Shown here in pieces: positions 3,071-41,566 of a stretch of DNA of 64,000 bases. Positions within the stretch are counted from its first letter, which is position 1; every line of letters begins with the position of its first letter. The DNA comes from Clostridia bacterium (lineage in GTDB: Bacteria; Bacillota; Clostridia; Oscillospirales; CAG-272). Both the position numbers and the translations under genes were made by a program. A model generated the notes under the pieces. The model was given only the letters and a program-made list of their open reading frames with translations, was not told where the DNA came from and ran no database searches. Location of the stretch: positions 18,660-82,659 of the forward strand of contig JAFXKJ010000019.1 in NCBI GenBank assembly GCA_017531765.1, read 5' to 3'.

Positions 3071-3718
3071 ATGTTTGATTATATTTTATTCGACCTTGAC
3101 GGAACGCTTACCGATCCTGCGGAGGGAATCACCAATTCCGTGGCGTACGCTCTTGCCAAAAGAGGCATAAAAGTTTCAGACAAACGTCAGCTGAACTGTT
3201 TTATCGGACCTCCGCTGACGGAATCCTTTGAGAAATATTACGGTCTTTCTCAGAAAGAAGCGAAAATGGCGGTGGAAGATTACCGAGAGTATTTTAAGCC
3301 GACGGGGATCTTTGAAAACAAGGTGTATGAAGGTATTCCCGAGCTCCTCTCACGCCTTAAAGCGGCAGGTAAGACTCTTATCGTTGCTACTTCAAAGCCT
3401 GAGATGTTTGCAAAGAAGATACTATGTCACTTTGAACTTGACCACTTTTTCGATTTCGTTGGCGGTGCGACCCTTGATGCTTCAAGAATTAAGAAGGCTG
3501 ACGTTATAAAATACTCCCTTGAAAACTGCGGCATTACCAATTTAGACAAATGTATAATGATTGGTGACAGACTCCACGACATTGTCGGTGCCTCTGAGTG
3601 CGGCATGAAATCTATCGGTGTACTTTGGGGTTACGGGTCAAAAAATGAGCTTGAAGAGGCAGGCGCTCATTATATTGCGGAAAAGGTAAGCGACATTGCG
3701 ACCTTTGTTCTTAACTAA
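3071..3718 (+). CDS. HAD-family hydrolase (phosphoglycolate phosphatase-like)
   Basis: DLDGTLTD motif I directly after ATG 3071; later S/T and GD..HD motifs. The track ORF's first 13 codons overlap the upstream gene and precede the conserved start. Confidence 0.85.
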   Translation: MFDYILFDLDGTLTDPAEGITNSVAYALAKRGIKVSDKRQLNCFIGPPLTESFEKYYGLSQKEAKMAVEDYREYFKPTGIFENKVYEGIPELLSRLKAAGKTLIVATSKPEMFAKKILCHFELDHFFDFVGGATLDASRIKKADVIKYSLENCGITNLDKCIMIGDRLHDIVGASECGMKSIGVLWGYGSKNELEEAGAHYIAEKVSDIATFVLN

Positions 3719-3770: not shown

Positions 3771-4547
3771 TTATTTTACCATTTCACCCAAAGCGTGTCC
3801 CGCATCAATGCCAAGCTTTTCAAGTCCCTTGGCGCTGTAATGCCCGTGTATCTGCGGGTGCATATATTCGGGAATTTCGTTAAGCTCCGTTGCAATACGG
3901 GTAAGCATTACAAAATCGGGATTCTCAACACAAATCTCATCCTGAGCTGTGATGATCTCGTCATCTTTGGCGTTCATAGTGAATCTTCCCACTCTGATAA
4001 TGCCGAATTTTTCGATGCCAAGCTCAGTTTTCAGTATACTGTTTAACATTTCAAGCCGCGCCTTGTAGACTTCTCTTGACTTTCCTTCAATGGCATCGCT
4101 TTCTCCCTGAAGCCACACAAAGAAAATGCGTTCAGCCTCTGCGTATTTTTTTGCCGCGAGTGCTTTCTTCACAAGAGCGTCAAGGCTTGCGCTTTCGGGA
4201 AGCCAATCCTTTACTGTTGTGCTTCCTTTTGCCGCGTGTACCGCAAGGACCTCTCTGCCCGTTACATGAACGTATTCCTCACAGAATTTCGGCACGAGAT
4301 TTGTGTGACCGTAGCAAGCCGCGCCTAAAGCGTGGTCTCTCAGCCATGCATCCTGATCTGTACCGTTTGTAAAGGTGTACCCTTCCGAAAAATCACATTT
4401 AATGTTCTCGCCAACGGGATTCTTCAGCGGCACTGCGCAACCCGTTAAAAACTTAAATTCAACTGCGCCGTCAACGGGGGTACTGTCTGAGAGACATTCA
4501 CACTGTCCCTGCATATTACTCTGTCCCGAAAAAATTATAATGTCCAT
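3771..4547 (-). CDS. SASA-family (sialate O-acetylesterase-like, SGNH-type) carbohydrate esterase
   Basis: GQSNMQG near the N-terminus and WLQGESD later are the signature blocks of the DUF303/SASA esterase family. No signal peptide. Confidence 0.75.
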   Translation of the reverse strand: MDIIIFSGQSNMQGQCECLSDSTPVDGAVEFKFLTGCAVPLKNPVGENIKCDFSEGYTFTNGTDQDAWLRDHALGAACYGHTNLVPKFCEEYVHVTGREVLAVHAAKGSTTVKDWLPESASLDALVKKALAAKKYAEAERIFFVWLQGESDAIEGKSREVYKARLEMLNSILKTELGIEKFGIIRVGRFTMNAKDDEIITAQDEICVENPDFVMLTRIATELNEIPEYMHPQIHGHYSAKGLEKLGIDAGHALGEMVK

Positions 4548-39067: not shown

Positions 39068-39874
39068 ATGAAGCTTAACAAAAAAATAGCCTTTATCGGC
39101 GCGGGATTCATGGCGGGAGCAATGATCGACGGTATTTTATCAGGTGAAGTTGCGGATAATACCAATATATATATAATTAATGAAGCGTTCCCCGAGGTTG
39201 CCGCGGAAGCCGCTGAAAAGTACGGAGTCAATCACGGTAAGCCTTCGGATATTGGGGACTGTGAGGTTATCGTTTTCGGCATAAAGCCGCAGGTCTTCCC
39301 CGAAACCGTGGAAATGTACGGAGAGTATTTCACTGCAGATAAGCTGTATCTTTCCATCATGGCGGGAATCTCAACGGAGAAGCTTGAAGCGGCAACAAAT
39401 GACGGCAGAGTTGTTAGACTTATGCCTAATATGCCGCTGTCAGTGGGTGAGTCGGCAACGGTTTACGTTCTCGGCAAAAACTGCACTGAAGCGGAAGGCG
39501 AAATCACCGAGGCTATCTTTGCACCTCTCGGTCTTATCAGACGTGTGGAAGAAAATATGATCTCGGCGGTAACAGCACTTTCGGGAAGTGGACCCGCATA
39601 TTTCTGCAGACTTGCGGAGGCAATGGTAAAAGCGGCTGCGGAATACGGCATGGACGAAAAGTTAGCGCTTGAGCTTGCGGTGCAGACTCTTATCGGTACG
39701 GCTGAGACGATCAAGAAAACGGGTGTTGATCCTGCAACACTCCGTACAAGAGTGACATCGAAAAAGGGAACTACCGAGGCGGCGCTTAACGCAATGACGG
39801 ATACGGGATTTGACAAGTCCGTTGCGGCGGCATTCGACGCGGCACGTAAGAGAAGCGACGAGCTTGGAAAGTGA
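39068..39874 (+). CDS. proC: pyrroline-5-carboxylate reductase
   Basis: IAFIGAGFMAGAM Rossmann start, MPNMP, and the C-terminal SKKGTTEAAL dimerisation-domain motif. Confidence 0.9.
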   Translation: MKLNKKIAFIGAGFMAGAMIDGILSGEVADNTNIYIINEAFPEVAAEAAEKYGVNHGKPSDIGDCEVIVFGIKPQVFPETVEMYGEYFTADKLYLSIMAGISTEKLEAATNDGRVVRLMPNMPLSVGESATVYVLGKNCTEAEGEITEAIFAPLGLIRRVEENMISAVTALSGSGPAYFCRLAEAMVKAAAEYGMDEKLALELAVQTLIGTAETIKKTGVDPATLRTRVTSKKGTTEAALNAMTDTGFDKSVAAAFDAARKRSDELGK

Positions 39875-39908
39875 AAAGACCAAGAAGAGTAAACAGAATA
39901 ACGTAAAA

Positions 39909-39952
39909 ACAAATTAGGGGACGGTGAAGATCGTCCCCTAATTTGTTATATG
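39909..39952 (+). terminator. strong hairpin terminator after proC (member of the CCCCTA hairpin family)
   Basis: 15-bp perfect stem acaaattaggggacg/cgtcccctaatttgt with an 8-nt loop. The GC core ggggacg/cgtcccc is followed by taatttgttatat. Confidence 0.75.
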
Positions 39953-40053
39953 TGATCCAAACGAAAAATTATCGCCAAACGTGCAGGTTGTAAGTAATGC
40001 CCCCGGCTGTGTCATTCTGAGCCTCGAAGAATCTCATTCCAACGATGATAGAT

Positions 40054-40222
40054 TAAACGTACGATTTATAAGCAAAACGTAAGATTTTTCTATATTTTTT
40101 GTTGTCGGAGACAACAAAAAATATAGGGTTAGCCAAAGGAGGACTACTTGGCGGTGCCAAGTAGGGAAACTTCAGGCGTGACTGTTTCGCAAGCGAAACG
40201 AGATGGTTCCTGACGTAAGGTT
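40054..40222. repeat. direct repeat copy 1 (with two extra hairpin modules)
   Basis: taaacgtacgatttataagcaaaacgtaa ... 16-bp AT hairpin 40091-40125 ... gggttagccaaaggagg ... agatggttcctgacgtaagg. Extra hairpins ctacttgg/ccaagtag and gtttcgc/gcgaaac relative to copy 2. Confidence 0.8.
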
Positions 40223-40415
40223 ATAGACACAACGTGCGGTAATAGATCAACGAAACGGACAGTATCGTTTGCTTCGTAAACAGTTATCGTTCAACGCGAC
40301 GTAACAGACCAACGAAACGGGCGATCACATAGGATTTGCCACATTCTCAGAATGTGACAAACACCTGCGGTGCCGCCCCTACAAAAAATCGACGGACGGC
40401 GCGGGAGTTTATTGT

Positions 40416-40552
40416 TAAACATACGATTTATAAGCAAAACGTAACCTTTTCCAATATTTTTGTTGTCGGAGACAACAAAAAATATTGGGTTAGCCAAGGA
40501 GGGAGCGAAGCGAGGAAACTTCGGCGTTTGAGATGGTTCCTAACGTAAGGTA
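40416..40552. repeat. direct repeat copy 2
   Basis: taaacatacgatttataagcaaaacgtaa ... AT hairpin 40451-40488 ... gggttagccaaggaggg ... agatggttcctaacgtaagg. Confidence 0.8.
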
Positions 40553-40858
40553 ACAAAATAACGTGTGATTAGTAAACCAAACACCAACATAATACCTCAT
40601 CCACCGTAAGCGGTCCCCCTTCCCCATTGGGGAAGGTTTAGTTATCGCCTAACGTACAGTCTGTAACCGAGCGAAGTGGGACGACCACATGGGGTCGCCC
40701 CTACAAACGTGGTCGGAACTGTTGGTTACAGACATAACGCGCGATTTTCAGGCAAACCTCACCATTTCTTCGAAACCTTGTTTGCGGGGGGCTAACATAA
40801 AACCATTCTGTTACGTAAAACAGAAATTCAAATAAAAACACCAATCATACAAAAACTA

Positions 40859-40887
40859 TTGTAAAAACACTTGAACCGTGTTATAAT
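40859..40887 (+). promoter_or_regulatory. sigma-A promoter of the candidate sRNA
   Basis: TTGTAA, 17-nt spacer, TATAAT. Confidence 0.6.
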
Positions 40888-40890
40888 AAA

Positions 40891-41115
40891 GTTGTCACAC
40901 AAAATTTAATTAACAAGCAATTTTTACCGGCCGCTTTATTTTTTTCATAGGGGTTTTATTTCCTATACCCATAACCAATACTGAATTTGTAAAAATGCAA
41001 ATTCCACTTGGCTATGGGTTCGGCTGTGCTGATCGCTTGTTAAGTTTTGTGTGACAACAATCGGAGTTTGCGTTTTTTGTGCGTGCGGCTTCGGCTGTGC
41101 GCACTTTTTTATTTT
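40891..41115 (+). ncRNA. candidate structured small RNA (6S-like rod with central bubble; identity unconfirmed)
   Basis: 40891-40918 pairs with 41035-41058 (14 bp, a 4-5 nt bulge, then 9 bp). A distal helix cccataaccaa/ttggctatggg encloses the gaatttg/caaattc hairpin. Asymmetric unpaired central region. Ends in an 11-bp UUCG-loop terminator plus T6 (41079-41115). No ORF. Confidence 0.5.
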
Positions 41116-41230
41116 GTTTTTTCTATGTCCGGTTATAATGGTATCTTGCTTAAATATATTATAAGCTTTTTATGTGAGCAGATGTTGTAAGTATACTTAA
41201 AATAAGTATACGAAATTTTGGGAGATTAAT

Positions 41231-41566
41231 ATGAAAACAGCAGTAATAGGCAGTCGAAAACTAAAAACTGATAATATAGGAGAATATCTTCCCGCAGATA
41301 CCTGTGAGATCGTCAGCGGAGGTGCCGCGGGAGTTGATACCTCCGCTAAAGAATATGCCATAGCGGCGGGACTTAAATATACCGAATTCCTTCCCGAATA
41401 TAAGCTCTACGGCAGAGGTGCGCTCATCGTCAGAAACCGCAAGATAGTTGATTATGCAGACTTAGTGGTGGCTTTCCGGGACGGCAAATCCCGCGGAACT
41501 AAGTGGACTGTTAATTACTGTATATCAAATAATATACCGCTGAAAATAATATACTGTAAAGAATAA
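41231..41566 (+). CDS. SLOG/DprA-like Rossmann-fold protein (DUF2493-like)
   Basis: 111 aa. The pattern IGSR ... VSGGAAGVDTSAKEYA ... RNRKIVDYADLVVAFRDGKSRGT matches the GGAxGxD SLOG signature as I recall it. Confidence 0.7.
   Translation: MKTAVIGSRKLKTDNIGEYLPADTCEIVSGGAAGVDTSAKEYAIAAGLKYTEFLPEYKLYGRGALIVRNRKIVDYADLVVAFRDGKSRGTKWTVNYCISNNIPLKIIYCKE

Follow-up and report, generated by a model that had tools for sequence, protein, structure and literature searches.

A gap of 1.36 kb without a credible open reading frame (ORF) separates proC (39068-39874) from a small SLOG-domain gene (41231-41566) in a 64,000-nucleotide (nt) stretch of a Clostridia bacterium genome (assembly GCA_017531765.1, contig JAFXKJ010000019.1, positions 18,660 to 82,659 of the forward strand; "the window", whose coordinates are used below). 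The question that this locus raises is what its last 250 nt encode. The original prediction placed there a structured small RNA (sRNA) with its own promoter and terminator, laid out like 6S RNA or else novel. We find that, judged from its sequence and from those of its relatives, this stretch is a genuine structured RNA gene with its own promoter and terminator, so that this part of the prediction stands, as does the fallback of a novel RNA, since no Rfam family matches it. The 6S-like reading does not stand, and the RNA is not 6S. It appears to belong to a new, previously uncatalogued family, of a kind already known (transcription-attenuating leaders) and with an unusual architecture. With moderate confidence, we propose from the comparative analysis that the family consists of riboswitch-like transcription attenuator leaders of Oscillospirales-type gut Clostridia, responding to a putative effector.

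The RNA unit in the window

The unit is made up of a promoter, a multi-helix RNA of ~170 nt and a terminator, with the following parts, all on the plus strand (bp, base pairs; MFE, minimum free energy):

40859..40887, + strand: sigma-A-type promoter, with TTGTAA at 40859-40864, a 17-nt spacer and TATAAT at 40882-40887 (10/12 match)
40891-40905/41044-41058, + strand: closing helix P1, 15 bp
40910-40918/41035-41043, + strand: helix P1b, 9 bp; the 5' strand also includes 40920-40922 and the 3' strand is also listed as 41031-41043
40928-40933/41021-41026, + strand: P2, a 6-bp helix in the central region
40947-40966, + strand: hairpin P3, ATAGGGG-TTTTAT-TTCCTAT, on the 5' side of a three-way junction
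40967-40978/41008-41019, + strand: distal helix P4
40983-41004, + strand: apical hairpin P5, GAATTTGTA-AAAA-TGCAAATTC, -7.3 kcal/mol
40990..41005, + strand: apical motif UAAAAAUGCAAAUUCC, complementary over 15 bp to the linker at 41063-41077 (pairing X)
41058..41078, + strand: conserved single-stranded linker, C-AAUCGGAGUUUGCGUUUUUU
41079..41110, + strand: intrinsic terminator, an 11-bp stem GTGCGTGCGGC/GCTGTGCGCAC (41079-41104) with a UUCG loop and T6, -18.0 kcal/mol

The promoter has the sequence first described, with the addition of a TG at 40879-40880 that makes an extended -10 element (TGtTATAAT), and 3-4 nt separate its end from the first paired base of the RNA. No ORF of 60 or more amino acids (aa) occurs in 39875-41230, in agreement with the claim that the region is non-coding. 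The MFE of 40888-41115 is -86.3 kcal/mol, compared to -49.3 ± 4.4 kcal/mol for 200 dinucleotide shuffles, none of which folded as well (z = -8.5). The reverse strand folds nearly as well (z = -8.0); the promoter and the T-run assign the RNA to the plus strand, as do the abundant G.U pairs of the family alignments, which would be A.C on the other strand. The closing helix that had been predicted is present, as P1 and P1b separated by a 4-nt interruption, and the distal helix with its enclosed 7-bp apical hairpin (P4 and P5) and the 11-bp UUCG-loop terminator with T6 were likewise recovered where they had been placed. The central region, previously described as largely unpaired, instead holds P2 and the hairpin P3, which together form a three-way junction. 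By inspection, we rejected a small ORF inside the RNA, as the apical AUG opens frames of variable length without a Shine-Dalgarno (SD) sequence, and a kink-turn at the conserved GAAU bulge, as there is no GA on the opposite strand.

A variant from the same species provides a first comparison. The identical SLOG protein is encoded on eight metagenome contigs, seven of which are near-identical to the window, while the eighth (L007) is 100% identical to it only from 41034 onward. L007 keeps the -10 box, P1, the apical hairpin and P3 (as TATAGGGG/TCCCTATG). P2, however, is replaced by CGAGAAGACTCT/AGAGTTTTCTCG, a different sequence that still pairs, and P4 is replaced by the unrelated but again complementary CTTATTTGGGAA/TTCCCAAGTAAG. 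It is this comparison between the window and L007 that supports P2 and P3. Upstream of the -10 box, L007 (1-372) is unrelated to the window (40500-40878), yet it again carries a TTGCAA-17-TATAAT promoter. L007 represents the replacement of one allele by a sister copy of this RNA; the right-hand junction lies in the 3' arm of P1, and nothing is inverted. Several metagenome contigs of the window species break off at 41034 or 41054, as they should in a population where variants coexist.

A family of related RNAs in gut Clostridia

Relatives of the SLOG protein at 71% and 59% identity are encoded without the RNA, with a divergent ORF of 56-62 aa in its place, and thus the RNA is not tied to the SLOG gene. 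The first homologues came from a blastn search against phage records, which returned two unverified gut "phage" contigs, and these gave a search pattern for a conserved 3' module (TCGGAGTT-N-GTGCG-stem-CTTCGG-stem-GCGCAC-T run). The module is found in at least 119 loci of GTDB species genomes from Oscillospirales-type gut Clostridia; the counts given below (115, 123 or about 120 loci or copies) are among the matches listed. Nearly all listed carriers are uncultured members of Acutalibacteraceae, Oscillospiraceae, Ruminococcus, Christensenellaceae, Anaerotruncus and related "Clostridia" from human and animal guts. In IMG/VR, there were zero matches each to the strict 3' motif and to a P1-arm pattern, and a relaxed motif matched four viral contigs only, three of them identical, so the family is not mainly viral. 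A plasmid collection held no match to the RNA, and neither pattern search nor nhmmer found further copies in the 64-kb window.

Two size classes can be distinguished, a type 1 rod of ~150-190 nt, which includes the window copy, and a type 2 of ~110-126 nt; the length of the leader RNA across the family is ~160-240 nt. Conservation is highest in the apical motif UAAAAAUGCAAAUUCC, in the linker (C)UAUCGGAGUUUGCGUUUUU and in the terminator GUGCG..CUUCGG..CGCAC, whose stem base and CUUCGG loop are nearly invariant among members. Some loci carry tandem arrays (L137 5170-6020 on the minus strand, L097 97-640 and L043 3700-4240) of two to three complete units ~290 nt apart, with identical promoters and different inner helices, and in these a ribosome-binding site (RBS) and gene follow only the last unit.

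None of these sequences is represented in Rfam as far as we searched. The check that had been suggested for the window, a cmscan search of the whole 64 kb against Rfam 15 at the gathering score, gave no match to any family, RF00013 (6S) included. At E ≤ 10 in the region 39800-41300, we obtained only chance matches to plant microRNA precursors and the L20 leader terminator, and none to 6S, Clostridial sRNAs or riboswitches. The relatives were no different: neither 18 of their loci nor, at E ≤ 10, the L137 tandem array gave a match to 6S or to any Clostridial sRNA or riboswitch. Chance matches to small nucleolar RNAs were the only others in the Rfam searches as a whole. We found no description of this RNA in the full-text literature, where large catalogues of unnamed motifs from microbiome studies could still contain it.

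The promoter and several helices are conserved across the family

A TANNNT box is present in 112 of 115 full-length members, preceded by TG in 65 of them, at a modal distance of 5 nt from P1. In a 61-member alignment, P1, P5 and the terminator are 97.4% paired, compared to 29-46% when the partners are slid; 13 pairs show double changes and 0 of 500 shuffles reach the covariation score. Column pair 24/224 of this alignment, for instance, is CG in 24, UA in 24 and AU in 12 members. Across the family P1 comprises 14 pairs, 10 of which have compensatory double changes, with 97.2% of cells paired. The middle pairs of the terminator also covary (267/277 is GU in 23, UA in 15 and AU in 11 members). 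The variable helices cannot be aligned by MAFFT alone, and P4 was tested through the energies of flank duplexes: with only 33% identity from member to member, the two sequences that flank the apical hairpin still pair at -16.1 kcal/mol, compared to -5.5 kcal/mol with the flank of another member (65 members). The comparison of homologues proposed at the outset thus shows strong covariation in P1, P4 and the terminator. P5 is the best conserved internal block of the family, and the P3 region appears in the family alignment as a conserved G-rich/TATACC block. The alignment also shows conserved bulges, the junction and the apical loop, which might together form a sensor.

The linker has two alternative partners

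The three most conserved blocks, the apical motif, the linker and the terminator, are mutually complementary. In one pairing, the 5' half of the linker (41058-41067 in the window) can pair with the loop and 3' half of the terminator (41088-41097) to make an antiterminator. This pairing is 97.3% satisfied, compared to 30-48% in slid controls, and it covaries (238/277 is AU in 32, UA in 17 and UG in 5 members; 239/276 is AU in 51 and GC in 3), with 0 of 500 shuffles reaching the score. The same terminator positions covary with the terminator's own 5' strand as well, giving a three-way relationship. In 78 of 88 type 1 members, the antiterminator equals or exceeds the terminator in stability (medians -17.4 and -14.7 kcal/mol), and in many members it is the MFE structure.

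In the other pairing, X, the linker GGAGUUUGCGUUUUU is complementary to the apical motif over 15 bp. The apical loop and the linker, both conserved and single-stranded, are each other's best partners: the apical motif is where the best linker duplex forms in 108 of 115 members, and the family mean energy is -18.2 kcal/mol, compared to -11.2 ± 2.4 kcal/mol with shuffled upstream sequence. In type 1 members, 96.1% of the cells of X are paired (28-61% in slid controls) without double changes, partly because the search pattern fixed the linker. In type 2, X does covary (92/171 is UA in 10, UG in 7 and CG in 6 members; 93/170 is GC in 21 and AU in 2; 0 of 500 shuffles). Sibling copies that were found by nhmmer, and so were not selected by the pattern, show compensatory changes in X: GCAGAUUCC/GGAGUCUGC in L097b, AAAAGCGC/GCGCUUUU in L127b, CACGGGCUC/GAGGUCGUG in L081b and CUCC/GGGG in L043b. 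These changes differ between siblings of one genome, which indicates that each linker co-evolves with its own apical loop. Such copy-specific changes favour an intramolecular, or homotypic, interaction.

The RNA precedes genes for diverse, mostly exported proteins

Downstream of the T-run, an SD sequence and the start of a co-oriented ORF are found within 130 nt in 101 of 123 copies (82%). In 73 of these 101, the distance from the T-run to the ORF start is 12-37 nt, so that a separate promoter would not fit. The downstream genes are very diverse, and two thirds of them encode an N-terminal hydrophobic segment or lipobox, indicative of exported or surface proteins. Pfam assignments include BspA-type LRR_5 in 16, Listeria-Bacteroides repeats, SHOCT, collagen, ChW and Ltp, as well as AbrB/MazE, zinc ribbons and EcoRI-type methylases. 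Clustering of the proteins encoded in the 8-kb flanks gave no recurrent partner other than the downstream surface proteins and housekeeping neighbours such as uvrA, infB, ffh and leuS.

The gene that follows the RNA in the window is:

41231..41566, + strand: SLOG/DprA-like gene (DUF2493/YAcAr type), 111 aa, co-oriented, 120 nt after the T-run

The SLOG gene of the 71%-identical relative is preceded by a TGTGATATAAT promoter of its own and by an operator-like GTATAC repeat. The window counterpart of this -10 element is degraded (TGTGAGCAGAT), and expression of the SLOG gene in the window may rely on read-through from the RNA promoter. We also observed that the operator-like GTAAGTATACTTAAAATAAGTATAC, with its direct GTATAC repeat, is conserved before the SLOG gene (window 41185-41215, L009 405-435), and that in the window the RNA occupies the place of the divergent 56-62-aa ORF of the SLOG relatives.

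A model for transcription attenuation

Our model starts from what is observed: the helices, the promoter, the terminator, two covarying alternative pairings and the linkage to genes. From these we infer that the pairings switch transcription, the direction in which they do so and the existence of an effector. The strong promoter would start transcription at the first base of the long helix P1, and the RNA would fold into a multi-helix body made of P1/P1b, P2, a three-way junction with P3, P4 and the apical P5. The linker that follows P1 would then have two mutually exclusive partners. Paired with the loop and 3' half of the terminator, it would act as an antiterminator and allow read-through into the downstream gene; paired with the apical motif in X, it would act as an anti-antiterminator, so that the terminator is freed and a stable ~200-nt RNA with a base-paired 5' end is released. 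A signal on the RNA body, which could be a small ligand, an ion, a protein or an RNA, would decide whether the apical loop reaches the linker, and the effector might set the equilibrium of X through the junction, through the conserved bulges or through the apical loop. The gene-linked terminator and the covarying antiterminator, taken with the lack of an Rfam match, the three-way junction and the tandem copies in changing contexts, make this the anatomy of a cis-acting leader or attenuator and not that of 6S RNA.

A bolder version, which we put forward only tentatively, is that each leader of a new riboswitch-like class carries its own "countertranscript", an apical loop complementary to the antiterminator strand, and that either effector-driven compaction or pairing with accumulated sibling leaders decides on termination. 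The regulon would then be a large and rapidly changing one of surface and accessory proteins across Oscillospirales, spread in a portable cassette of promoter, leader and gene often found by tRNA genes.

The window copy itself is probably an extreme case. Its X duplex is intact (-18.8 kcal/mol), and its terminator is unusually strong and one pair longer. This terminator, together with a weakened antiterminator, implies a bias to termination, and the copy probably terminates most of the time to give a stand-alone, stable RNA of ~220 nt upstream of the SLOG gene, with its 5' end buried in P1.

Several points weigh against the attenuator model. In the window, the antiterminator contains an A.C mismatch and reaches only -11.3 to -12.7 kcal/mol against -18.0 kcal/mol for the terminator, and a gene 120 nt past the T-run is only loosely what would be expected of a leader in a 5' untranslated region. 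No close downstream ORF is found in 22 of the 123 copies. The tandem arrays, with a promoter for each unit, fit independent sRNA genes at least as well. A P1 of 13-19 bp is unusually long for a small-molecule riboswitch, and it is also unusual for such a riboswitch that the expression platform is more conserved than the putative sensor. Part of this conservation is a retrieval artefact, because the terminator base GUGCG/CGCAC and part of the linker were set by the search pattern; we count the conservation of the CUUCGG loop and of the apical motif as independent of the pattern. Pairing X excludes a straight rod: the P4-P5 arm would have to fold back at the junction so as to approach the base of P1. 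Finally, in L138 (IMGVR_UViG_3300010346_002427, minus strand), the apical loop is reverse-complemented, GGAATTTG-CATTTTTAA-CAAATTC compared to the usual GAATTTG-ATAAAAATG-CAAATTC, and the loop part of X is broken. The match to the motif is at 3678-3699, and this loop lies ~110-135 nt upstream of it (roughly 3810-3835 on the plus strand); no other such exception was seen.

A possible trans-acting RNA

The main competitor of the attenuator model is a stand-alone trans-acting sRNA, in which the ~200-nt terminated transcript is the product and the downstream genes ride on leaky read-through; we consider this possible but unlikely. The exposed apical loop and linker would serve as seeds, possibly for the linkers of sibling leaders, in which case the product would enforce termination across the family in the manner of plasmid countertranscripts. 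A strong promoter and an efficient terminator do define an independent transcription unit, burial of the 5' end in P1 would favour stability, and the window copy, with its dominant terminator and distant gene, looks much like an sRNA gene. The best argument comes from the tandem arrays, in which complete promoter-RNA-terminator units differ in their inner helices. An RBS and a co-oriented gene after the terminator in 82% of copies, mostly at 12-37 nt, would however be unexpected for an independent sRNA, and an antiterminator that covaries and is iso-energetic with the terminator would be useless in a pure sRNA. Pairing X bears on both sides: the apical motif and linker are conserved across copies, so that cross-pairing is mostly possible, but the compensation is copy-specific (L097, L127) and some changes create mismatches with siblings.

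Possible mobility of the locus and DNA-level explanations

About 17 of the ~120 loci lie 90-430 nt downstream of a tRNA gene on the same strand, representing nine amino acids, far above a rough, uncomputed chance estimate of ~0.5%. These tRNA-adjacent loci are:

L019, L027, L039, L041, L045, L052, L064, L066, L069, L070, L085, L111, L116, L122, L134, L136, L137

In L019 and L122, the RNA and a lipoprotein gene occupy a 1.5-1.8-kb segment with a 49-57-nt repeat of the 3' end of tRNA-Val at its boundaries. Partial 3' fragments of tRNA genes are also seen in the spacers of L066, L041 and L089. The repeats and fragments look like remnants of repeated integration events, and units of promoter, leader and gene seem to travel as small cassettes in integration hot spots, which fits the allelic replacement in the window species.

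In another reading, the inverted repeats function in DNA, as an invertible promoter, as a recombination site of the attC-like or hairpin type, or as one end of a small mobile element, and the RNA-like fold is a by-product. We regard this as very improbable. The arms of P1 are indeed 19-nt inverted repeats whose ends resemble attC core sites (GCCAAAC...GTTTGGC), and the contig breaks, the polymorphism represented by L007 and the tRNA-linked, in two cases repeat-flanked, loci would all be in keeping with recombination. However, no inverted variant was seen and the apical motif of L007 is in the same orientation, abundant G.U pairs are found on the plus strand only, the promoter and T-run are at fixed, conserved positions, the AAC/GTT triplet that defines attC is often CAC/GTG, and no integrase or transposase recurs in the family flanks. 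Three specific candidates were rejected. For an integron attC site, P1 ends in GCCAAAC/GTTTGGC in many members and in GCTACAC, GTCACAC or GCGACAC in others, and the promoter and terminator are always present. For an inverton, the eight same-species contigs all have one orientation, at the contig level, and L007 is a replacement. For a retron msr-msd, the neighbours are proBAC, the SLOG gene, a SipL-like gene and pheST, with no adjacent reverse-transcriptase gene. Mobility of the whole promoter-RNA-gene cassette is compatible with the attenuator model and is no substitute for it.

Least probable of all, to the point of being scarcely credible, is a 6S-type RNA acting as an open-promoter mimic to sequester RNA polymerase holoenzyme, because the resemblance to 6S RNA (RF00013) in length (~200 nt), long closing helix, irregular internal loops, apical stem and own promoter is outweighed by the failure of the 6S and related covariance models at the gathering score or E ≤ 10 in both the window and its relatives, by a three-way junction at the centre whose helices are backed by compensatory replacement (P2 in L007), by multiple copies in tandem arrays and changing genomic contexts, and by a conserved, putatively switchable terminator/antiterminator platform that is tightly linked to downstream ORFs.

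Comparison with known regulatory RNAs

The attenuator model finds its closest parallels in the S-box (SAM-I riboswitch) and T-box leaders, which likewise have their own promoter, a structured 5' domain and a terminator directly before an ORF, and in which one strand is likewise shared by an antiterminator and an anti-antiterminator; in the family described here, both of these alternatives covary. The family described here differs from these in having no sequence or covariance-model similarity to any Rfam riboswitch or leader, and in that its putative anti-antiterminator is formed at long range by the apical loop with the 3' linker and not by the closing helix of an aptamer. P1 is also far longer, the expression platform is the most conserved part, and the genes are heterogeneous surface and accessory genes and not those of one pathway.

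In the rep leaders of the plasmids pT181, pIP501 and pAMbeta1, a complementary RNA binds a "preemptor" strand so that the terminator forms. Here the complementary segment, the apical loop, is on the same sense transcript and not on the opposite strand, the loci are chromosomal and precede non-replication genes, and action in trans is conjectural. Like the riboswitch-derived sRNAs SreA and SreB of Listeria, and like other leaders with a lasting terminated product, a terminated leader of ~200 nt with its own promoter might accumulate and act in trans. The cyclic di-GMP-I and -II riboswitches of Clostridia are similar in gene association only, with many copies before adhesin, surface and phage-borne or accessory genes; there is no structural or sequence relation (no Rfam match), and a link through the ligand would be purely speculative.

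Members of the Oscillospirales (Ruminococcaceae, Acutalibacteraceae, Oscillospiraceae and relatives) are dominant, mostly uncultured gut bacteria, and to our knowledge almost nothing is known of their gene regulation. The RNA described here is a widespread, conserved leader before genes for BspA-type leucine-rich repeat proteins, lipoproteins, and collagen-like and phage-exclusion-type proteins. If it is an attenuator, it would offer a handle on the control of the variable cell surface in this order, and it would represent a new orphan class of regulatory RNA in which the apical loop is a built-in anti-antiterminator. The three mutually complementary blocks, including the linker CUAUCGGAG, make the switch hypothesis directly testable by compensatory mutants, and the family can seed a covariance model for a feature that is invisible to Rfam-based pipelines.

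Repeats and hairpins around the RNA

The part of the gap that precedes the RNA unit in the window (39950-40850) is a mosaic of repeats without an Rfam match. Two blocks of ~90 nt (40053-40142 and 40415-40502) are 91% identical, and each contains a perfect hairpin of 17 bp, CTATATTTTTTGTTGTC/GACAACAAAAAATATAG. Other shared blocks are repeated with a period of ~330-360 nt, and short AACGT-type motifs every 30-60 nt. In a different species (L009/L010), the SLOG module is preceded by a 96% conserved version of one block (40494-40546), and another block (40594-40641), a CCTTCCCC-ATT-GGGGAAGG hairpin, is found ~300 nt upstream of a sister RNA in L034.

Upstream of several members there are arrays of short GC-rich hairpins flanked by GTATATCATCA ... 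TGATGATATAC (or ATGATG), for example in L007 (1-170), in L069 (from tRNA-Thr to the RNA) and in L027 (548-900). These look like a repeat family of these genomes similar to repetitive extragenic palindromes or miniature inverted-repeat transposable elements. Upstream of the RNA promoter in L134, L111, L070, L069, L041, L039 and L066 is a terminator-like hairpin, TTGAGTATTCA-(loop)-TGAATACTCAA-T7, often followed by a second hairpin, ACCCACTATGACAC...GTCAAGTGGGAT-T6, and the two hairpins together may form an insulating module that moves along with the RNA gene. Finally, a perfect 16-bp hairpin, AACAAATTAGGGGACG/CGTCCCCTAATTTGTT, lies directly after proC at 39908-39947 with T-runs on both sides, and is probably a bidirectional terminator that closes the proBAC operon.

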